A DNA stretch of 20,054 nt from Candidatus Nanohalobium sp. GTDB taxonomy: Archaea > Nanohalarchaeota > Nanosalinia > Nanosalinales > Nanosalinaceae. The notes beneath the pieces are model-generated. The model did not search any database. It worked only from the letters and a program-made list of their open reading frames with translations, and was not told the origin of the DNA. The translations under genes and the position numbers were made by a program. Shown here in pieces: positions 137 to 15,831 of the stretch; position 1 is the first letter of the stretch; each line of letters begins with the position of its first letter. The DNA is taken from NCBI GenBank assembly GCA_042217555.1, contig JBDGSL010000006.1, positions 1-20,054 on the forward strand. Reading direction: 5' to 3'.

Positions 137-1366
137 ATGGGCAACGACAAAACACCAGAAGACGTTGACGAAAGGTTACAAGAACTCAAAAATCAAGAAT
201 ATATCTCGGATCACAACAAGGACATGATGGAGGTCTTCCTTCACAAGCTCCGAGCTGAGGACAACACCTCAAGCGGAAGGAACTACAAGTACATGTACAC
301 ATTCGATGGGATATTCAAAAAATTTGTAGATTTCCCAATCGATAAACCTACCTATGAGAGATTAGAGGTAGCTGTAAGCAAGATCAACCACAGCGAATTG
401 AGTGAATGGACAATAAAGGATTACAAAGGAGCTATAAGGAAGTTCTTGAAGCTCAAGTACCCTCACAAGCAGGAAAGACCAAAGGAAGTACAAAAGATTC
501 TCGATTCACAACTTCTTCGACACAAGAACAGCAAAATAGAGAACGACAAAGAGAAAGTTCCTTTAACTCCTGAAGAGGTGCTTGACATGGTGGATGAGGC
601 ACAAAATCCTAGAGACCGTTTGATCCCTCTATTCATGTTTGAAACCGGAGCAAGGATCACTGAACTGTTGAATATCAAATTAGGTGATGTCGAACTATCT
701 CAACAGTACGCACAGGTAACGGTACCAACCCTCAAGAACAACAAAGAACCGAGAACACTCACCTTGACCAAAAGCATAGGTCTCTTACAGGACTGGATGG
801 AGAAACACCCACGCAAAGGCCAACCGGATGCACCTCTACTTGTGAACCTACAGGACAAGAAATGGAGCAACCGAGTTAACAAGGAGGACGATCTCAACTA
901 CAAAGGAAAACAAATGACCAGCACAAACACGATGAGCATCCTTCGTAAATTGGCCGAAAGAGCCGACATAGACAAGTACATCAGCAACCACGTGATGAGA
1001 CATTCATCAGCAACCTACTGGGGAAAGAAATTAGGCCTTGAAACCATGATGTACTGGTTCGGCTGGTCATCACCTGAGACCGCCAAAACATACCTCCACC
1101 ACGATGAGGAACAAACCAAAAAGAGCATGTTGAATCTGGCTGGTATTGATCAGGAAGAGAACAAAGACCCTACCGAAAACAAGGTATGTCCACGGTGTGA
1201 GGAAAAGCAGCCACCGACAGCACAGTATTGCTCCCAGTGCTCTATGTCACTAGATCAAGAAGCAGCACAAAGGGTGAAGAAACTGGAAGAAGCCGGTGAA
1301 GACATAGCAAGAGCCAAAATAAATGGACTGACCGATGAGGAGATGAAGGAACTTCTAAGAGATTAA
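137..1366 (+). CDS. Tyrosine recombinase/integrase with C-terminal zinc ribbon
   Basis: Catalytic set ETGARITE (R), PTLKN (K), NHVMRHS (HxxR), FGW (W), AKTYLH (Y). C-terminal CPRC...CSQC zinc ribbon, as in many archaeal integrases. Confidence 0.95.
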   Translation: MGNDKTPEDVDERLQELKNQEYISDHNKDMMEVFLHKLRAEDNTSSGRNYKYMYTFDGIFKKFVDFPIDKPTYERLEVAVSKINHSELSEWTIKDYKGAIRKFLKLKYPHKQERPKEVQKILDSQLLRHKNSKIENDKEKVPLTPEEVLDMVDEAQNPRDRLIPLFMFETGARITELLNIKLGDVELSQQYAQVTVPTLKNNKEPRTLTLTKSIGLLQDWMEKHPRKGQPDAPLLVNLQDKKWSNRVNKEDDLNYKGKQMTSTNTMSILRKLAERADIDKYISNHVMRHSSATYWGKKLGLETMMYWFGWSSPETAKTYLHHDEEQTKKSMLNLAGIDQEENKDPTENKVCPRCEEKQPPTAQYCSQCSMSLDQEAAQRVKKLEEAGEDIARAKINGLTDEEMKELLRD

Positions 1367-1477
1367 GACTGTCAGAATTTGAAGGCTCATTTCTTGAAAA
1401 TTAGTTTTTAGAAAAGTCATCTGATGATGGAGAAGAGTGTTAAAAATGAAAACTCTTCAATACCTAAATGTGATTTT

Positions 1478-4400
1478 ATGGGGAAGGACAAAATAAAGAC
1501 TAAATTTGAAGAAGTAGAAACTTTTTCCAACCTAGTTGAATTCATCGCAAATGATCTTGAGTACAGCAATTTGATGGATCCCAAGGATAATATACAAGAA
1601 CAGGATTTCTGGGACGGGAAAGGAAGAGAAGTCCACCTCAAAAACGAAGATAGAACAATTGTCCGCATAATTCGAGTAGAAGAAAACGAAGTAGATCTCA
1701 GAGATATTAAAGACAGAATAAAGAGAAAAGGCCGTAGAAACCAAGAACTATTCACAGTATTTACATATGTAGACGAGGACGGAAACCTAGCAGGCAAAAC
1801 AAGATTCTTCTGGCTGAACAGAAGGCTTTCAGAAGAAGATGTAGACGTAGAATACGATCTAAGGTACTTTGAAGCAAATCCAGAAAAATTGGAGCCTGTT
1901 TATATAGACTATTTAGATAATCTCAGAGTAGGAAGTAAGAGTATAGAAACTCTTGAAGATGATGAATCCGACAAAGGCCTTAGAGAGATCTTCTCTATTG
2001 AAACAATTACTAAGAGATTCTACAGCGAGTTCCACGATGTAATAGAGGAAGTAGAGGACCATATTGAAGGCCTTGATAATGATGTAGATGAACACCACTA
2101 TGCACAGGTCTTGATCAACAGAATCCTCTTCATCATGTTTATAGAAGAGAAAGAATGGCTCAGCAAAGAACCAGACGACTACTCCGGCGACAAAAAATAT
2201 CTGGAGGAGAAATACGAGGAGCTGCGGGATAGCGATGAAGTTGATGATATCTGGAACGACTTCTTCAGAAACCTGTTTTTCGATGGACTCAGCCACAAAG
2301 GAGAAAGCCCAGATATTGTAGGAACAGTACCTTATCTGAACGGAGGGCTGTTCGAGGAAAAAGAATACGAACAAGATGTTTATGTAGAGAAAGAGTTCTT
2401 TGAGGCTTTGCTTAACCCTGAAACAGATGCACAGGGCAACAGGAAAGGCTTCCTGCTACAGTACAAACTCAAGCTGAGTGAGAGCAATCCTTCAGAACAG
2501 GAACTTGTCGTTGACCCAGAGTTCATCGGCCGCGTATTTGAGATGTCTATGCAGCAAGATCCAGAAGAGCGTGGAGAGAAAGGCGCATTCTATACTCCAA
2601 AAGATATTACGCAGTACATGTCCAAGAACTCAATTAAACAGCTACTTCTGAACGAGCTGCCGGAGAAAGAAGAAGAACTTTCACAGCTGGTGCTGCATCA
2701 TAAAATTGAGGACAACTTTACAGAGGGAGAACTCCAGAAGATCCACGACGAACTGAAGGAAATTAATGTACTGGATCCGGCGGTAGGTTCTGGAGCATTC
2801 ATAATCGCAGTCATGGAGGAACTGGTCGGAATCTTCGAAGCAATCAACCCGGAAATAGGAGAGGAAGAAGACACATACGACCTCAAAGAACACATGATCG
2901 CCAACAACCTCTACGGAGTAGACATCGACCAAGCAGGAATCGAACTCTGCAAATTCCGCACCTGGCTCCACCTCATGCAAGACCTCGACATCAACCTCAA
3001 AACACTCAAACAACAAAACGACAAATACGCACTACCCAACCTCGACTTCAAATTCTTCGTAGGAAACAGCCTCTCAGGAGACTACAAACCAATAGGAGCA
3101 ATCGACAAAATCAAGGAATCTGGAGTACAGAGACAACTTGAACTCACTGGAGATTCGTACGATTCAGAATCATTCGATACAGACTTCCTGAACAAAATAG
3201 AAGCAAAGCGAGATGAGTACACCCGCACGCATGATCAGGATAAGAAAGAGGAACTTGAGCAGGAAATTAATCAGCTGACCGAAAAAATAGAGAACTCAAT
3301 CAACTGGGCAGACACCGACTACTACATGGAAGAAGTAGTAGAGAGCTCAGGAGACGACTTCAAATGGAGCGTCCACATGCCTGAAGTAATGGCAGAAGGC
3401 GGCTTCGATATTGTAATAGCTAATCCTCCATATCAAGGAGGTAAGAATTCAACACATGATTACATCAGCGCTTTAAGCGACTTTTTAAGCGCTAAAAGAG
3501 AGGAATACAATAAAATACCCGGAATGACGAAAGATCTTTATCAAAAATTTGTTTATAGAGGTTTTGAATTGTTAAGTCAAGAAGGAGTCATAAATTATAT
3601 TACGAGTAATACTTTCCTGACTATTGGTTCGAAGAAACCAACCAGGAATATTTTACTGTCAAATGGACTTAAGGAAATCACTCTTTCTAACGAAAATACC
3701 TTTGACGCAACGGTTAAACCTGCTATTTTCCTTGCTAGAAAAACAGAAGCTGAAAGTTCAGATCTAATCAGATTCAACGATGCAAGAGAAAAAGATATCA
3801 GCAACTACACACTTTTGGTGACAGAATCGTTCTCTGAAAATAGCTATTTCATAGAAAAAGGAAAATATGACGAGGCATTTCGAAAGGCATTCTTTCCTCC
3901 AACTGAAGAAAACTTGAGATTTTTTGAACGATTTAATTCTAAGCTTTCTTCCCTAGAGAACGACTGGGAAGATGCTATTAGAGATTCAGAAACTGTTGAA
4001 GAGAACTTAGATGAGATCAGAGAAAATCACTTCAATGATCTTGCCGAAGGAGATACAACTATTCTTGGACTAAATGCTGTAGGAGGTCAAGGAATAAATA
4101 CTGGAGATAATGAGGAATTTATCGCCTACATCGAAGGAACTGATGGCGCTCAAGAAGTAAAGGATAGAAATGAAAATTTTGAATATGAAAAGAAGAACGA
4201 AAAAACCTATAAATGGCTCAGCAGAGTTGTAAAAGAAGAATCAATACATAAACTCGAAGGAAAGAAAGTAACTGAAAAAGAAAAGGAAAACGGCTTTAAA
4301 ACTGAATCTGATTACTATTGGGTTCCGCTAGAAAAAGGATTCAAGGAATCCGATGTTTACTACAGACCTCAAAAGAATGTAATAAACTGGTCTGAGGAAG

Positions 4401-4834
4401 CTGTTGAGGAAATGAGAGAAGCTGGTACAATGAGAAATTTGAGATACCAGTTTGAAGAATGCCTCTTTATATCGTGCGGAGGCACAGGAGATGAATTTAG
4501 AGTTCGGATGATAAAAGATTCTGTAGCAACATCAGCAGGCGTGATTTTCAACCCGATCAACGACCAGATGTCTGTCAAATACTTACTAGGTCTTCTTAAT
4601 TCTGATGTGATAAGGCACCTGGTTACGAACTTCATAAATAACACAGTCAATGTTGCTATCACAGATATTAGATATGTGCCTATAGTAATTCCTGATGATA
4701 ATCAGGAGCAAGAGGTCATAGACATAGTTTCTGACATCATTGAGAAAAGAAAGGACGGAGAAGAAATTAAAGATCTAGAGAGGAACTTAAATTCAAAAGT
4801 TTCAGAAATCTATGGTGTTGAGTTGGATGAGTGA
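1478..4834 (+). CDS. Eco57I/Type IIG-like N6-adenine DNA methyltransferase (gamma class) with C-terminal target-recognition domain
   Basis: Motif X GAFYTP, motif I VLDPAVGSGAF, motif II YGVDID, motif IV GGFDIVIANPPY, and TaqI_C-like tail YLLGLLNS...IRYVPI. The ORF is open from 1424. ATG 1478 is preferred because a TATA-like GTTAAAAA lies about 30 nt upstream. Confidence 0.92.
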   Translation: MGKDKIKTKFEEVETFSNLVEFIANDLEYSNLMDPKDNIQEQDFWDGKGREVHLKNEDRTIVRIIRVEENEVDLRDIKDRIKRKGRRNQELFTVFTYVDEDGNLAGKTRFFWLNRRLSEEDVDVEYDLRYFEANPEKLEPVYIDYLDNLRVGSKSIETLEDDESDKGLREIFSIETITKRFYSEFHDVIEEVEDHIEGLDNDVDEHHYAQVLINRILFIMFIEEKEWLSKEPDDYSGDKKYLEEKYEELRDSDEVDDIWNDFFRNLFFDGLSHKGESPDIVGTVPYLNGGLFEEKEYEQDVYVEKEFFEALLNPETDAQGNRKGFLLQYKLKLSESNPSEQELVVDPEFIGRVFEMSMQQDPEERGEKGAFYTPKDITQYMSKNSIKQLLLNELPEKEEELSQLVLHHKIEDNFTEGELQKIHDELKEINVLDPAVGSGAFIIAVMEELVGIFEAINPEIGEEEDTYDLKEHMIANNLYGVDIDQAGIELCKFRTWLHLMQDLDINLKTLKQQNDKYALPNLDFKFFVGNSLSGDYKPIGAIDKIKESGVQRQLELTGDSYDSESFDTDFLNKIEAKRDEYTRTHDQDKKEELEQEINQLTEKIENSINWADTDYYMEEVVESSGDDFKWSVHMPEVMAEGGFDIVIANPPYQGGKNSTHDYISALSDFLSAKREEYNKIPGMTKDLYQKFVYRGFELLSQEGVINYITSNTFLTIGSKKPTRNILLSNGLKEITLSNENTFDATVKPAIFLARKTEAESSDLIRFNDAREKDISNYTLLVTESFSENSYFIEKGKYDEAFRKAFFPPTEENLRFFERFNSKLSSLENDWEDAIRDSETVEENLDEIRENHFNDLAEGDTTILGLNAVGGQGINTGDNEEFIAYIEGTDGAQEVKDRNENFEYEKKNEKTYKWLSRVVKEESIHKLEGKKVTEKEKENGFKTESDYYWVPLEKGFKESDVYYRPQKNVINWSEEAVEEMREAGTMRNLRYQFEECLFISCGGTGDEFRVRMIKDSVATSAGVIFNPINDQMSVKYLLGLLNSDVIRHLVTNFINNTVNVAITDIRYVPIVIPDDNQEQEVIDIVSDIIEKRKDGEEIKDLERNLNSKVSEIYGVELDE

Positions 4835-7800
4835 TGATGTTCAGTATCCTGGTGTGATGGATAATCGGGAGTGGAGTGTTAGTGACCGGGCTAATCAGTA
4901 TTGTGCGGGTGCTGAGACGGTTAAGGTGGCTGTTGGTTATTTTTATGTTGCTGGTTTTGAGTTGTTGAAGGAGAGTTTTGCTGATGTTGATGAGGTTAAG
5001 TTGTTGATTGGTCGGCAGACTGATGAGCAGACCAGGGATGAGTTGGTGAAGGGTTTTGCTGATGAGTTGGATGATGTTGAGCAGAATGAGGATACGAATC
5101 AGAGTGTTAGGCATCTTTATCAGTTGATTCAGGAGGATAAAGTCAAGGTTAAGATTTATACGGGGAGCAGGTTCCATCCTAAGCTTTACTACTTCGATAG
5201 AGGTGATATCAAGGATACGGCTATTGTAGGTTCTTCGAACTTCTCTCCGAGCGGTTTGAAAGGTAATGTAGAATTGAATGTGGAGAAAAACGAGCCCCTG
5301 CCTACCAATTTCTTGAATAACTGGTTTGAGGAGTTATGGGAAGAGGCGGATGAGTTCAAGAAAGATTTGCTTGAGGTAGTTGAAAGTTCCAAGTTTGAAG
5401 ATGAGGCGAAGAAACCTGTTGATCCGGGTGTTGAAGGTCTGATCAGTCCGAAACAAGCTACCGAGATGTATATCCGGAATCACTTCGAACGAGAAGTTGA
5501 GGACGGTACATTATTTGAGGATATTGAGGGAGAGTATGAGGATCAACTTGCCGAGTTCCAGAATGATGCAGTAAGAGCAGCAAGATATACCCTGGATCGC
5601 TACAACGGAGTTATTCTTTCTGACAGCGTTGGACTAGGCAAGACTTGGATCGGTTCTGCACTTGCTGAAGAATATTCGAATCCACAGTCCCAAGAGTTGA
5701 TTATCGCTCCTAAACGGCTTCACAGCATGTGGGAACAAACTCTAAATAAAGAGTTCAATGTGCAGGGAGAGCAGAGAATTATTTCCTTCCAGGAACTCTC
5801 TATGATGGATGCAGACGATATCGAGCGCTTCAGAGATTATGACCTGATTTTAATTGATGAGGCCCACAAGTTAAGAAATCAGGGCAGTAAGCGTTACAGC
5901 AATATTCAGAATATCGGGCGTAAAGACAAGAAATACATTTTACTAACTGCTACTCCTGTTCAAAACTCCGCTACAGATCTAAACAATATTATTAAGATTT
6001 TTGCGGACGATGATGACTTCGACATCAATCTGTACAATGATGAAGAGGTTTCTGATATTTTCAAGGCCTATCAGAAAGAAAGTCTGAAGGATGATCCTGA
6101 TGAAGCTAAGATGGAGAGATTAAAGGAGGATATTGAGAGAATAATGCGTGAAGTAGTTATTTCCAGAACTAGAGACTATATTATGGATAATTATGATAAT
6201 GTCATGATTGGAGATCGGGAAATTAAGACTCCTGATAGGAAGCCCAAGCTTATACCTCCTGAAAGCGATGATATGAAGGTCCTTTACAGTGAGATCATCG
6301 ATATTGTGGCCGGAAGAGATGATCAGGATGATGAAGGCCTTAATCTACCTTATGTGGGAGTTCAGCGTTATGGAGATGCAGAAACAGATGAGTTTGAGAT
6401 CCAGTACCGGAATGCTGGCGCCTTGATTACTATTTTACTCTTTAAGAGATTAGAGAGCAGTCTTGCTGCATTCCAACAATCAATCCATAGATTAAAAGAG
6501 CGTGAAAAAGCTATAAAGGAAATTGCTAGCGGAGATGTTAATTCTCCTCAAAAGCGGCAAGAAGTGATGGACTACTTTGAAGAGAGAGATGATGAAGGAG
6601 AGCTGGAAGATGTAGATATTGACGAAGTTATAGATGCTGTTGAAAATTTAGACAGAGATGAGAGAAAAGAAATCACTACCGATGTTGACGAAGATCTTAT
6701 AGATCTAAAAGAACTAGAAGACAAGGCTGAAGAATTTATTCATGAAGACGGTACTGATGCTAAAGTTGAGCAGCTAAAAGATCTACTGAACGACGAATTG
6801 GATGATGAGAAAGTTCTGATTTTTACCCAATATGTACCTACGGCAGAATATATCTTCGAAAAATTAACCGGAAATACTGGCTCTTCACAGATTGGTCAGT
6901 TTGAAGATAAGAAAATAGGCTATGTTCACGGAGACTCATTCAAGCGAGAAGTAGTTACCCAATTTGCCCCAAACTCACAAGGAGCTCAGACAGGTCTATC
7001 CGATGAAGATGTAGATGTATTAATCACAACAGATGTTCTTTCTGTTGGCCAGAATTTGCAAGATGCAAGGGTTGTTGTAAACTATGATTTGCATTGGAAC
7101 CCTATGAAGATGGAACAAAGGATAGGTAGAATAGATAGAATCACTACTGAGCACGATGAGCTGCTTATTTACAACTTTATACCTACACAGGAGCTTGATG
7201 ATACATTAGGGCTTTTAGAAAGGATAAGAAGAAAAATTGAAGATATTTCAAACACATTTGGAAAAGAAGCACCTATTCTAGAAGATGCTGAAGATCGTGT
7301 TGAGAAAAACCTGATTATATACGACAAGGTTCAAGAAGATGGATCTGAATTCTCAGAGGAAGACTTTGAGAAAGCAAAGTCCAAGTACGACCAGTTTAGG
7401 TCACAGGTTAAGGAGTTCTGTGAAGAAAACAATATAGATCTTGGTGATTTAAAAAGAATTTCTGCATTAGAAGATGAATCACGGGTTGCATCAAACTTTG
7501 ATGCCGATGAGGAGGCATACATGGTTATGGCTCACTTAGAGTTCACTAATGGTACAGAAGATGTGAGATCAATAATAACTAGGAACGAGTTCGGCATGGA
7601 GACTTACGACATAGATGGGCAGAGAGCAATAACTAACCTCCCAATAGATGAAGATGATGAGGCAGAAATTTTTGATATAATTAAATCGAATCGACCAGAT
7701 AAGAACCCGGATATAGAAGAAGCCAGAGAAATCGAAGACATCCTTACAAGCCCAACTAAATGGAATAAACAAGTATTAGACATCGAAAATAGTGTGCCAG

Positions 7801-11468: not shown

Positions 11469-11646
11469 CGATTTTGCTCACGATTTTTTGGCCGATTATC
11501 TGTAAAAAATTACAAAGTTAGCTGTTTTCCAGAGAAAAAGTGGCTTCTACCGAAACCTTAAGAATAATATAATTATTAGGGAATCGGTAAAAACCACTTT
11601 CTCTATAGCTTTTGTCTAATAGTGTAAAAAACACCAAAAGATCGGT
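11469..11646. other. Putative replication origin: iteron-like CGATT repeats plus a 74-bp imperfect palindrome with AT-rich centre
   Basis: CGATT at 11469, 11481 and 11493 (12-bp period). Palindrome 11531-11604 AAAGTGG.TT.TACCGA..CC.TAA / TTA.GG..TCGGTA.AA.CCACTTT around AATAATATAATT. Lies immediately downstream of the Rep gene. Confidence 0.55.
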
Positions 11647-14147
11647 TATTTTAGAAACCACTCAATTTTGCGGGAAAATCCACTTTCTTTTCGACTACTA
11701 ACTTCACCGCCATCTTCTAGATTTTCGAGCTGTTCACGGACTCTTTTCTCATCTCCTAAAACACTCTTCTTGATTTCAGTGGTCGTTTTACCACTTTCAT
11801 CTAGAAGATCAAGAATATCTTCTTTGATATCCTCATCTGACCTTGTAGTCTTCATGCTGATTTTTCCTGAATTATAGGTGTGGTCTTCACTTTCACGAGC
11901 AGCACCTTTGATGTCGTTACCAGGAACACCAGTGTAGCTGGTTATCTGCTTTACACTCTTTCCGCTGTATTCATCAAGAACCTCATTTTCACGCAAAGCT
12001 TCCTGAACCATCTCGTTAATAGAAACATTTTCCACATCATCTCTATCTAATCCTAGACTATCTAAAAGATCTTCAGGAACAATACCCGCAACAAAAATAT
12101 GTTTTCTCTGCTGCCTCATATTCCTTAACCTGAGAGCAGCATCAGTTACAGCACTGTTCACAAGCATATCGTGAACTACCTTGATGTTCTTATCTTCATC
12201 GCTGTAGTAATACTCTCTTTCACCTTGATCGTTTTTCTTGTACTCTGCATCCATTCGTGATGAATTGTTGTACTTTGTATCCTCACGAACATCATCATTC
12301 ACAAGTGCCGGAAAATCACCTGTCATCAAATAATACCTTTTGATGTAGGAAAGATGGTTCTTGTTCGGTGTCCCGACAAGGAAAATCCTTTCAAAGTCCT
12401 CAAAGTCATTTGTGCCCTGAATGCCTCCGCCATCCCAGTACTTGAAAGGTAAGTCACCAAAAATTGTAGGTTGAACTATGGAATCCACATCATATTCACC
12501 TTCTAGGAAATCCATGTAGCCTACAAAACCTGTGTTATCGAACATTTTTGCTATTTGCTTCATTCGTGCCTTGAAGCTCTCGCTGAAATGCCTTTCACCA
12601 GTAATATCTGTAGACAGGCTTGAACGACTGAATGTGCCGTTTCCCGGTCTAGTAACTTTGTAGATATCGGCCTTAAGCCCAGCACTTTCTACATGTTCGG
12701 AAGCATCTGTAATCCTTGGTACGATGTGCTCTTCAAGGTTGTTAATGTCGTAATAACTTTTCTTGTCGAAGCTTTGCTTTCCACCTGGATGATACCTTTC
12801 AGGCATTATCTTGTACTCTGCTTCGTCCTTCCTCATCTTGTAGTCTAAATATCTTCTTCCCACAGTATTGAACCATTCTTCGTTGAATCCGGCCCAAGCC
12901 CACTTTACATCTACATTGTGCTTCAAAGAAAGGTCAAATATACGAAAAGCATGAGGTTTCGACATCCAAAACAGCACCCTCTTTTGACTGCCTATCTTCT
13001 TCCCTTCCTCACAATGCCACTCGCCGTTGTAAGCCCATTTTTCACTTATCACAACATTCATGTCCTTGCTCTCCCATAGAGTACGGGAAAGCCGGATCAC
13101 TTCAACAGCTGATTCAACAGCTTCACTATCTTGTATTTCGCCATCGGACATGTTCTCATTGATGACATCATAAAGAATGTTTGCAAGCTTCCCGTGATCT
13201 CTAGAGTCTATAAACATGTAATAGAGCTTTTTGAAGTGTTTCTGGAACATGTCATCTTCAAAGTCATACAGGCGGTTTATGTGTGAAATGTAGTAATCAT
13301 CTTTGTTAGATGCTCTATCTTCGTCTCTATCTTTGTTAATATGGAAGTTAACTTCTCCTTTTTCTTCCGCCTTGAAAAGCTTGTTCAAACTTCCATTAAA
13401 CCTGTTAAACAGCTTTTTCTTGTTATACTGGTTGAATGCATACTCAAATACTTCAAGAAGCTCGTCCAGTCTTTCCACATATTCACCACTGTCACTGATA
13501 TTGCTGACACACTTTTTCAGTACCTTTATCATTTCTTCTATAGATTCAAGGTCTTTATCAAATGTAAACTCTCTTTCCTCACCGTCTATACCTTCGTCTA
13601 TCAACAAAGTATCAAGGCTTTTGTATTGCTGTAGATGGTTGAATTGTAGAGGATCAAGGTATGGTGGTTCTTCTTCCAGTTGCTTCTTGTAGACGTTGTC
13701 CTCATAATCTAACAGCGTCTTAGAAATTATAGCAGGTCTAACACCGGCATCGTACATGCTTTGAGCCTTACTTATTACATCGTCCGGAAAGCCTTTCTCT
13801 CTTAACAACTTGATTAAACCCATTCGATGGGTAGCACCATCTATGTCCTCTTTAAACTCGTTTTCCAAGTGGTCGTGTTCCCTAGAAGTAATAGCAACGT
13901 CTTTATCTGTCTCATTCACAAACTCCTTCATCCAGTGGGTTTTGCCAAGACCTTGAGGAGTCGTATTGATATCGACGAAGTGTTGTTTCAAATCTATGCT
14001 TATCGGTCCGCCATCGATATTTATTTTATCAAAAGTATCGTCTCTCCTGTAGAATTCTTTGTGAATAGGTGCTGCTTTATTCCTTGCACCTTGAACTTCT
14101 TCACTGTTCGTTAAGTTCTTATTAACATCCTTACAATTCTTTACCAT
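11646..14147 (-). CDS. Putative replication protein: divergent SF2 helicase (UL9/CyRepA1-like) with C-terminal winged helix
   Basis: Walker A TPQGLGKT, Walker B LLIDE, second RecA-like domain QGTNDF...FLVGTPN, motif VI-like DAALRLR, C-terminal wHTH KTTTEIKK...VREQLENLEDGGEV. Confidence 0.65.
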   Translation of the reverse strand: MVKNCKDVNKNLTNSEEVQGARNKAAPIHKEFYRRDDTFDKINIDGGPISIDLKQHFVDINTTPQGLGKTHWMKEFVNETDKDVAITSREHDHLENEFKEDIDGATHRMGLIKLLREKGFPDDVISKAQSMYDAGVRPAIISKTLLDYEDNVYKKQLEEEPPYLDPLQFNHLQQYKSLDTLLIDEGIDGEEREFTFDKDLESIEEMIKVLKKCVSNISDSGEYVERLDELLEVFEYAFNQYNKKKLFNRFNGSLNKLFKAEEKGEVNFHINKDRDEDRASNKDDYYISHINRLYDFEDDMFQKHFKKLYYMFIDSRDHGKLANILYDVINENMSDGEIQDSEAVESAVEVIRLSRTLWESKDMNVVISEKWAYNGEWHCEEGKKIGSQKRVLFWMSKPHAFRIFDLSLKHNVDVKWAWAGFNEEWFNTVGRRYLDYKMRKDEAEYKIMPERYHPGGKQSFDKKSYYDINNLEEHIVPRITDASEHVESAGLKADIYKVTRPGNGTFSRSSLSTDITGERHFSESFKARMKQIAKMFDNTGFVGYMDFLEGEYDVDSIVQPTIFGDLPFKYWDGGGIQGTNDFEDFERIFLVGTPNKNHLSYIKRYYLMTGDFPALVNDDVREDTKYNNSSRMDAEYKKNDQGEREYYYSDEDKNIKVVHDMLVNSAVTDAALRLRNMRQQRKHIFVAGIVPEDLLDSLGLDRDDVENVSINEMVQEALRENEVLDEYSGKSVKQITSYTGVPGNDIKGAARESEDHTYNSGKISMKTTRSDEDIKEDILDLLDESGKTTTEIKKSVLGDEKRVREQLENLEDGGEVSSRKESGFSRKIEWFLK

Positions 14148-14548: not shown

Positions 14549-14779
14549 TTATTTACCCTTTTTGATCGATACCAAGAGATCTGAGACCTTTGCATCTGTA
14601 ATGGGGAAGGGTAAGACAGTAAGATCCGTGTACTTCCCACTACCGGTTCCACTTCTCTGTATGGACAGGTCTTTACCGTACAGTTCTCTGAACACCAAAT
14701 AATGGAGGTCTAAAACCGGTGTAAAGGCCTTTAATGTCCTTTTTAACGTGGTTTTATGGCTTCGGTTTGAGGCCTTCAC
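14549..14779 (-). CDS. Hypothetical protein (76 aa, doubtful)
   Basis: GTGA overlap with the recombinase stop. Basic composition is unlike the acidic neighbours, so it may be non-coding. Confidence 0.3.
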   Translation of the reverse strand: MKASNRSHKTTLKRTLKAFTPVLDLHYLVFRELYGKDLSIQRSGTGSGKYTDLTVLPFPITDAKVSDLLVSIKKGK

Positions 14780-15831
14780 GATTCAACTACCTGGTCTTCG
14801 ATCTCGATATAATCTGATATGTCGATCTGGTACTTTCTCTTCAGTGTATCGATGTAGATCTCGGTTGTTTCTTCGTCGCTGTGTCTTGCGTAATTGCTTA
14901 ACCGTGACTTGATCTGGCTGTAATCATAATCGTTGTCCTCGTCTTCCGCCATCTTCTTACCAAGTTTAACCAATCGTGAATGCCTGAAATCGTGTGTGCC
15001 TTCAAGGTCTACTGCTACTTTATCGGCTGCTGCCTTTAACGGATTTAAGACACGGTAATACAATTTTTTCAGGTCGTCGGTATCTTTGAAGAATATTTTT
15101 TCATCTCCATTCACGTTTTCGGGTTTGAAATCCTCTATCCTTGTTCTAGTGCTGTCCGTGACCTTTACCGTGCCTGAATTTTTGCTTTTCGACCTATCAG
15201 CGTGAATAAGTATCTGGTTGTCGTCCAGCTTTACACCTGACCATGTATCTCTTTCATAGTCCTTCCACCGTAAACGTGCTATATCGCTGAACCTGCCTGC
15301 TGTTTCATACATAACCTGTAAAAACAACTTTAGTTCCTCTTCATCAAGGACTTCGATGTGGTCGCCGACCTTGTCTATAATCCTTAAAATCTCCTGCTCA
15401 CTGTGGATCTTTGCCCTTATCTTGTCCTCCTTGCTTCTGGCTTCCGTTGATTCACCTACACTGTGAACCTGGGACCTCAAATAGTTAGCATTCCTTGTAG
15501 CAGTTCTACCGCTTCTTTCGGCCTTGAAATCAAGGTACTTCTTAAGACCGTATTCAGTGGCTTTACTTCCGATGTAGTTGACCATTTCGTTGTTGATCTT
15601 GTCTATAACCATATCTTCGTTCTCATCAGGTTCTAAATCTATTACACCAAATCTGTCGTGATGCTTGTAGCTGAATGCATAGTACCTCTTAACATAGTTG
15701 AAGTAATCCGTTACTGTCTTGTCTGAAGTATGGTTTTCCTCGAGGTACTCTTTGAAGTTTTCCAGCTCGTCCACCACCGACTCATCAAGTTCAATGTTCG
15801 GTTCGTTGATGCTGTAGTTCACAGTTGCCAA
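14776..15831 (-). CDS. Second tyrosine recombinase (Xer-like, putative resolvase)
   Basis: N-terminal SAM-like SDKTVTDYFNYVKRY, ETAGRFSDI (R), RSKSK (K), THDFRHSR (HxxR), ARHS (H), TEIYI (Y). TTG start with upstream GGGTG SD. Confidence 0.92.
   Translation of the reverse strand: MATVNYSINEPNIELDESVVDELENFKEYLEENHTSDKTVTDYFNYVKRYYAFSYKHHDRFGVIDLEPDENEDMVIDKINNEMVNYIGSKATEYGLKKYLDFKAERSGRTATRNANYLRSQVHSVGESTEARSKEDKIRAKIHSEQEILRIIDKVGDHIEVLDEEELKLFLQVMYETAGRFSDIARLRWKDYERDTWSGVKLDDNQILIHADRSKSKNSGTVKVTDSTRTRIEDFKPENVNGDEKIFFKDTDDLKKLYYRVLNPLKAAADKVAVDLEGTHDFRHSRLVKLGKKMAEDEDNDYDYSQIKSRLSNYARHSDEETTEIYIDTLKRKYQIDISDYIEIEDQVVES

Follow-up and report, generated by a model that had tools for sequence, protein, structure and literature searches.

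Organisation of the restriction-modification locus

The window analysed here is a stretch of 20,054 nucleotides from Candidatus Nanohalobium sp. (contig JBDGSL010000006.1, positions 1 to 20,054), in which the gene of a Type IIG-like restriction-methyltransferase (MTase) is followed by that of a PLD-nuclease/SNF2-helicase partner, the start of the second overlapping the stop of the first by 8 bases. The genome carrying the window, G000, has a size of 1.3 Mb and an acidic proteome; C10, C12, C15, C31, C47 and C50 are contigs of this genome and G003 is a genome of the same genus. The MTase unites the N6-adenine MTase motifs I and IV and a variable C-terminal recognition region in a single polypeptide, as in Type IIG enzymes, and a Pfam-type domain search gave no nuclease family match for its N-terminus. 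Judged from the alignment with a copy on C10, its start is likely at 1478. The features of the restriction-modification (R-M) locus are as follows.

1424..4834, + strand: Type IIG-like restriction-methyltransferase (Eco57I PF07669, E value 3e-29; PADLOC REase_MTase_IIG, E value 1e-46)
about 2774-2794, + strand: MTase motif I, DPAVGSG
2794..3112, + strand: left A/C arm, maximal patch with 99/103 synonymous third positions A/C
3114..3279, + strand: small inner variable block, swapped on its own (52% identity to C10)
3280..3438, + strand: second, weaker A/C arm, ending just past NPPY (86% identity to C10)
3422-3433, + strand: MTase motif IV, NPPY
3439..4802, + strand: exchanged cassette with the remaining MTase core and the putative target-recognition region (GC content 36%, keto skew absent)
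4803..5165, + strand: right G/T arm, the last MTase codons (YGVELDE) and the first 113 helicase codons
4827..8078, + strand: PLD-nuclease/SNF2-helicase partner (PLDc_2, SNF2-rel, Helicase_C; PADLOC HKD+Snf2, E value 1e-82)

The third codon positions of the two genes are skewed in opposite directions on the two sides of the cassette. The codon counts of an earlier reading made from the sequence alone (the sequence-only reading) proved exact, down to the named exceptions: 91 of the 96 codons in 2825-3112 end in A or C (the exceptions being CCG, GAG, two Met and one Trp) and 102 of the 104 codons in 4827-5138 end in G or T (exceptions GAC and ACC). The bias of 3280-3406 is weaker, with 34/42 codons ending in A or C and five of the eight exceptions being Met or Trp. 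Third positions of the middle region, 3407-4810, are mainly A/T (326/468 codons, 70%), also as stated before, and keto skew is absent there. With the remainder of the two genes as reference (57% A/C, 55% G/T), a binomial test gives p values of 5e-20 for the A/C arm and 2e-23 for the G/T arm, their coordinates having been picked after the skew was seen. The maximal G/T patch runs from 4813 to 5165 (116/120 third positions), so that the G/T arm begins within the last MTase codons. When the 130 patches of G000 that have 90 codons or more are ordered by purity, both arms and their paralogues take places 1, 2, 3 and 5. The skew decays within 0.3-1 kb, with a modest asymmetry of patch shape. At four-fold sites GC content is preserved and the purine fraction is shifted, the G/T and A/C patches being complementary mirror images; on the A/C strand the depletion of T exceeds that of G.

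Exchange of the cassette between conserved arms

Contig C10 carries a second copy of the locus with the same layout. The two copies are identical at 295/300 bases of the left arm (2794-3093) and 356/363 bases of the right arm (4803-5165), 98% in both cases, compared with 54% over 3439-4802 and 75-90% farther out from the arms. Identical runs of 241 and 228 bases lie inside the arms and a third one, of 239 bases, at 5334-5572, outside the strong skew. Three of 36 metagenome loci (L032-L034) have the same arms around other cassettes, giving five alleles in total, whose cassettes share about 20-65% amino-acid identity per 30-codon block in most blocks. Since skew by itself raises identity, the expectation from composition was subtracted at four-fold sites. 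The corrected identity excess among the four close alleles was 0.75-0.90 in the left arm vs 0.45-0.61 upstream and 0.56-0.82 in the right arm vs 0.16-0.28 downstream; it was low and variable in the second A/C arm (0.06-0.73).

Four of 23 metagenome runs were then compared (X2, X3, X4 and X6, the last three from three other studies). In X3, X4 and X6 contigs span only 2684-3530 and 4741-5345 and leave 3531-4740 uncovered, and loose contig ends were found at 3429 and 3438 on the left and at 4806 on the right. Run X2, which may be the source sample, gave full coverage plus a joint from 3439 to 4803. In X3 the inner block was swapped for 115 other bases, with a joint from 3114 to 3251. The breakpoints predicted at NPPY and at the gene junction were thus seen just past NPPY and just ahead of the junction, and the alternative alleles expected in metagenomes are present in L032-L034.

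An assembly chimera, named beforehand as an outcome that would overturn the interpretation, was rejected: the C10 copy shares the layout, and a 1,486-base cassette contig of X2 overlaps both arms at similar depth. A site-specific inversion or shufflon system was discarded as well, no inverted or direct recombination sites being found at the cassette borders, where the only repeats or inverted repeats were short low-complexity matches. Comparison of near-identical arms and diverged cassettes shows that the two patches are the homology arms of a cassette replaced repeatedly by homologous recombination, in agreement with the sequence-only reading. Replacement of target-recognition domains and domain movement in R-M genes through conserved flanks, also between loci, have been described (Furuta et al. 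2011, PMC3077401). The flanks in the consulted part of that paper are short repeats, with no mention of skew; here, border repeats are absent and the arms are 300 bp long and skewed.

The same skew pair at other sites

Patches were called with a simple open reading frame (ORF) caller and a segment scan, which gave 173-175 in G000 and 308-311 in G003. The skew of the locus is therefore not unique, but neither are the patches random. Four of the four full-length Eco57I-type genes of G000 (among six matches) are bracketed by A/C and then G/T, including copies that are ~33% identical; the other two matches have coding-strand A/C patches only.

The alignment of G000 to G003 revealed 15 intein-like insertions in 14 genes. 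Thirteen sites were tested, omitting the second site of DP2 (39 codons from the first) and PolB, whose intein is in G003, and 11 of the 13 had sufficient upstream codons. In the intein-free alleles of G003, the A/C-to-G/T step at the insertion site was +0.196 on average and positive at 8/11 sites (null standard deviation 0.127), a value reached by 0/20,000 resamples; each resample contained 13 values instead of 11, and the conclusion is unchanged at about 5 standard errors. The intein-bearing G000 alleles showed weaker steps. The PolD DP2 site was followed through 86 loci, of which 7 lacked an intact site and another 3 proved to be duplicates. The step was positive in 24/24 nanohaloarchaeal loci (mean 0.21, eight at or above 0.30), compared with a mean of −0.06 in 51 other archaea (0/51 above 0.2) and 0.14 at a sister-family locus. 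A pattern scan added 54 further loci, 51 of them usable, with a mean of +0.02 and a single value above 0.2 (1/51, the outlier G074).

Gene gain/loss junctions (163) exceeded conserved junctions (314) in orientation-adjusted skew by +0.075 in G003 (p 4e-4) and by +0.10 in G000 (p 4e-9). The anticipated presence of the A/C-G/T pair at other variable sites was thus found at inteins and at gain/loss junctions. The skew also peaks at cassette edges, for instance ahead of a tRNA-Leu on C15 and within a pilin gene on C31. The tRNA genes of G000 are A/C-rich upstream and more G/T-rich downstream (means 0.39 and 0.54), which was not used as evidence because promoter and terminator composition confound it. 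No homologue of the helicase arm was found in viral contigs.

Intergenic DNA shares the skew (r about 0.3-0.55 in most cases), which bears on selection at the codon or mRNA level for A/C-ending codons and an unstructured message, the bracket then being coincidental. Coding strands do average 56-59% A/C, reaching 65% in the most conserved genes, and the majority of patches have A/C on their coding strand; such selection is unable to yield, on that same strand, an arm with 98% G/T, or the intergenic skew, or the complementary mirror images at four-fold sites, and does not suffice to explain the right arm or the steps at inteins. We find it hardly credible as the general cause; it may contribute to the left arm only. 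The earlier statement that translation or transcription bias could not produce the mirror image is upheld by these observations.

Local replication origins, or bidirectional synthesis anchored on a motif, are highly improbable. The A/C-to-G/T switch has the polarity of a bacterial origin, and G003 lacks a two-replichore skew, as this explanation would have it. It is contradicted by a skew that fades within a kilobase or less, by switch sites that coincide with swapped DNA, and by a search for palindromes anchoring the switches, GGCC included, which found none (largest mean step 0.03). Replication keto skew and mitochondrial strand asymmetry likewise oppose A/C-rich and G/T-rich strands, with an A/C-to-G/T switch; unlike them, the pattern here is sub-kilobase, has hundreds of switches per genome and shows T more depleted than G on the A/C strand.

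The independent sites strongly support a directional footprint of recombination in the composition of the arms, and we regard this core of the explanation as highly probable.

Several sites of the two genomes were recorded in passing. G000 is intein-rich, with 28 Intein_splicing matches vs 1 in G003 and 0 in G004, and its PolD DP2 has two inteins, 39 codons apart. C50 starts with an apparent Cdc6 intein, directly followed by a G/T patch of 250 codons. In the pilin-like gene at C31:14006-14470 the A/C skew is so strong that T, N, Q, K and I are favoured in the protein; it breaks off sharply where a C-terminal domain with ordinary composition begins. A surface protein of 2,583 residues with nine LamG matches (L078:6695-14443, C12) has alternating A/C and G/T patches and is a candidate modular adhesin under domain exchange. 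In G003, positions 383523-394075 show ~10 kb of near-continuous coding-strand A/C skew over surface-protein and mixed genes, with a G/T block from 394610; this stretch exceeds simple repair tracts in length.

Relation to GRINS

Skewed, gene-converting repeats named GRINS occur in bacteria, most frequently in Streptomyces, and their origin is stated as unknown in the paper naming them (PMC8256042). As far as the consulted parts of that paper describe them, GRINS resemble the arms in their correlated third-position GC and TA skews and abrupt A/C and G/T blocks on one strand, in being duplicated and homogenised by gene conversion, and in their tie to specificity-determining domains. Duplication over >500 bp at >80% identity is found for 1431-3651 (85.7%) and 4803-7342 (87.4%) in comparison with C10. 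Mean absolute GC and TA skews in 150-nt windows exceed the threshold of 0.15 in 2600-3114 (0.22, 0.36), 1431-3438 (0.16, 0.29) and 4803-5303 (0.51, 0.17), though not over the whole of 4803-7342 (0.26, 0.13); this threshold is lax, the unskewed cassette passing it too (0.18, 0.18). GC and TA skews are correlated in 2600-3114 (r 0.76) and 4803-5303 (r 0.68), with r of −0.52 in the cassette and −0.46 over the 6 windows of 2794-3114. The third-position skews of the arms are −0.75/−1.0 and +0.88/+0.97. Homogenisation by gene conversion is visible in the 241- and 228-base identical runs and in the four-fold identity above composition. The arms satisfy the GRINS definition and are therefore formally an archaeal GRINS.

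The survey of GRINS covered bacteria only, with skews within intragenomic repeats, and the parts consulted describe neither a fixed polarity around an unskewed cassette nor a link to NucS (PMC8256042). Here the host is archaeal, the polarity is present, and, unlike GRINS, the skew also marks single-copy genes at intein sites and gain/loss junctions; these three features are new. A literature search, mainly open-access and mostly by title or abstract, returned no polarised arms around cassettes or inteins, no nanohaloarchaeal skews and no NucS cause. Of the suggestion that the mechanism is undescribed, the part concerning skewed arms as such falls to GRINS, and the part concerning polarity, archaeal occurrence and mechanism stands, no report of these having been found. 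The fixed geometry, with the A/C strand directed toward swapped DNA at the locus, at inteins and at gene-gain sites, makes the origin of GRINS directly testable, and the directional footprint of recombination may explain the bacterial skew pattern.

A model based on NucS/EndoMS blind spots

GC-biased gene conversion is a known case in which biased handling of heteroduplex mismatches reshapes silent sites near recombination hotspots. Unlike it, the bias observed here is amino vs keto, is strand-polarised and leaves GC content unchanged. As a cause of the arm composition we put forward, tentatively and at a little under even confidence, break repair under the mismatch preferences of NucS/EndoMS. 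A break in the resident cassette would be resected, and two 3' tails, running toward the cassette, would invade the donor copy. NucS/EndoMS, the only mismatch sensor found in this MutS-less archaeon, would cut G/T, G/G and T/T mismatches and barely A/C, A/A and C/C, so that a tail with G or T at a polymorphic site would be cut and then converted or lost while a tail with A or C would pass. Over many exchanges each tail strand would drift to A/C, leaving the top strand with A/C to the left of the cassette and with G/T to its right. The skew would fade with tract length, and the cassette, freshly copied from varied donors, would remain unskewed. A side effect would be a convergence of the arms between lineages, which should ease further swaps.

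The A/C strands point at the cassette and were for this reason taken as the 3' tails formed when the recipient breaks; the G/T strands would then be the re-synthesised strands, or else the tails of an ends-out donor. Intein homing proceeds via a break in the recipient, which favours the recipient-tail geometry. NucS was found in 36/41 genomes, MutS_V in 1/70 and MutS_I in 0/5, so the lineage has NucS and lacks MutS, MutL not having been searched for; the Haloferax control has both NucS and MutS. In the consulted parts of published work, EndoMS cuts G/T, G/G and T/T best and A/C, A/A and C/C hardly at all (PMC4838380), a specificity also seen in vivo (10.1101/2023.11.26.568737); NucS/EndoMS restrains recombination between diverged sequences (PMC8228993), and Haloferax requires nucS for gene conversion (PMC11276520). 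According to the portion consulted of a 2026 survey on skews in archaea, NucS repair a priori cannot be strand-specific (PMC12999951); this statement concerns replication, and a recombination joint distinguishes strands by geometry.

The Ile codons separate the candidate processes. In G/T patches defined without Ile (530 codons pooled), the ATA fraction was 0.12 instead of 0.40 and the ATC fraction 0.22 instead of 0.36. An EndoMS toy equilibrium model with hand-set weights fits the four-fold sites and gives 0.13-0.14 for ATA in G/T patches, where 0.12-0.13 is seen and transition-only models keep 0.37-0.40.

Deamination of exposed single strands (C to T, A to G), which the sequence-only reading had proposed for 3' tails, is largely refuted and very unlikely. 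In animal mitochondrial DNA it does give A/C vs G/T strands, according to the part consulted of PMC1794132, and it would fit donor tails in an ends-out geometry. The tails of a recipient break are A/C-rich, the opposite of the polarity required; the stronger depletion of T than of G on the A/C strand, and of ATA than of ATC, is the reverse of a process led by C to T; the Ile test needs A-to-T transversions; and uracil glycosylase is present in 5/5 genomes.

Alternatively, the skew could be mutagenic at the same recombination sites, strands re-synthesised after resection gaining G and T by error-prone synthesis through wobble or tautomer mispairs, an idea already put forward for GRINS. In its favour are the polarity, since the strands made anew are those rich in G/T, the way the skew decays with distance and its association with inteins, and transition-only models match the Ile codons of A/C patches well. 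We consider this unlikely in view of the ATA fraction that those models keep in G/T patches, of a four-fold GC content that is kept while the purine fraction is not, and of G/T mispairs being the preferred substrate of NucS.

Equally unlikely in our estimate, the arms might be selected or self-driven as recombinogenic sequences. The 3' tails of an ends-out linear donor, G/T-rich and running away from the cassette, would be unstructured and tolerate mismatch by G.T wobble, so that donors spread; G/T-rich single strands load RecA/RadA well. This fits the polarity by ends-out geometry and accounts for A and C both being lost, by whatever route, as well as for the amino-acid-level skew of the C31 pilin gene. 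It is at odds with intein sites, which show the same polarity with the recipient being the broken molecule, with NucS, which would cut the G.T mismatches, and with the finding of DprA in 1/70 genomes, and it needs selection on hundreds of single silent sites.

The NucS/EndoMS model and the recombination footprint beneath it have several results against them. Three of 11 intein sites have no step, and genome-wide pair tests are weak: gaps below 30% identity occur in 26/46 A/C-G/T pairs vs 12/37 reverse pairs (Fisher 0.045), with Mann-Whitney 0.07 and Wilcoxon 0.057. The model leaves unexplained why the majority of patches (270/311 in G003) lie in ordinary genes with A/C on the coding strand. 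The toy model over-predicts ATA in A/C patches (0.60-0.66 vs 0.42-0.45 seen) and under-predicts ATC in G/T patches. Mycobacterial NucS repair has been reported, in the source as consulted, to be short-patch and recombination-independent. The winning strand in the heteroduplex is an assumption of the model, as is the break that would trigger exchange of the R-M cassette. Among eight related helicase loci of family members only one or two are bracketed (G001 clearly; G004 by a similar A/C-G/T pair of unconfirmed R-M identity). Patch density within the family runs from 35 (G021) and 32 (G003) per 100 kb to 0-3 in five other genera (G004, G009, G013, G017 and G020), the G021 value and the low ones coming from samples of 60-143 kb, and G043 and G044, of other families, with NucS found and MutS not, have 1 and 0 per 100 kb. 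Seven Thermococci reach only +0.01 to +0.12 at DP2. Finally, related genomes are not independent samples, and kinship inflates all cross-genome counts.

Distribution across lineages and implications

Among 31 haloarchaeal-type homologues of the gene pair (four named, 27 assigned by GC and identity, some near-duplicates) the bracket was found in 0/31, and it was absent from two low-GC homologous loci of unassigned host. Three other families have 0-1 patches per 100 kb. NucS is not sufficient, because several NucS-positive relatives show little skew, and another factor, probably the rate of exchange, therefore sets its strength. The zero of G040 (NucS not found, 0 patches in 143 kb) is uninformative, because the NucS-positive G044 has none either. 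DprA (1/70 genomes), NurA (1/5) and Cdc6 copy number do not separate high-skew from low-skew genomes.

G074 (L332, L347-L356), an unrelated archaeon of 2.4 Mb, has stronger, multi-kilobase A/C and G/T patches, 62 in 147 kb. NucS is present, with a partial MutS_V match and no MutS_I. The phenomenon is therefore not confined to nanohaloarchaea.

It is possible, if rather doubtful, that polarised arms are the general footprint of strand-biased gene conversion arising from NucS/EndoMS blind spots, and that this explains GRINS and patchy archaeal skews. If so, it would be an amino/keto counterpart of GC-biased gene conversion, self-reinforcing in that the arms of diverged lineages are made to converge, and the position and direction of recombination hotspots would be readable from a single genome. 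Hypervariable cassettes, whether for defence specificity, pilins or surface proteins, would become findable in uncultured archaea from one genome. The silent-site composition of these archaea would be set by recombination, not translation, and codon-based or phylogenetic inferences in them would need correction.

Neighbouring genes and other defence loci

The R-M pair appears to be located on an integrative element, together with a tyrosine integrase:

137..1366, + strand: tyrosine integrase (PF00589, E value 8e-23)

Farther on, an ORF of 833 residues without Pfam match adjoins a second tyrosine integrase (window 11646-14147 and 14776-15831, − strand). The second integrase and several orphan genes suggest that the contig is one integrative element or two. 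No tRNA genes were found in the window. The domain content of the Type IIG-like enzyme and PLD-SNF2 helicase pair is shared with parts related to DISARM and BREX, and a complete gene set of either was not found beside the pair.

On C10 a short prokaryotic Argonaute (L077:470-3251, − strand; PADLOC pAgo_I, E value 5e-144) and its nuclease partner Aga_REase_Archaea (E value 4e-80) come after the paralogous R-M/helicase pair. On C47 (L081:708-5638) an A/C patch ends a Schlafen-group-3 helicase and a G/T patch opens an McrB-like gene, with ~1.2 kb between them that is probably another exchanged defence cassette. In G003 an NgoPII-family restriction gene and a C5 methylase lie within a strong patch (L130:488-2407), and GGCC is under-represented in that genome (ratio 0.41) and not in G000 (1.1).

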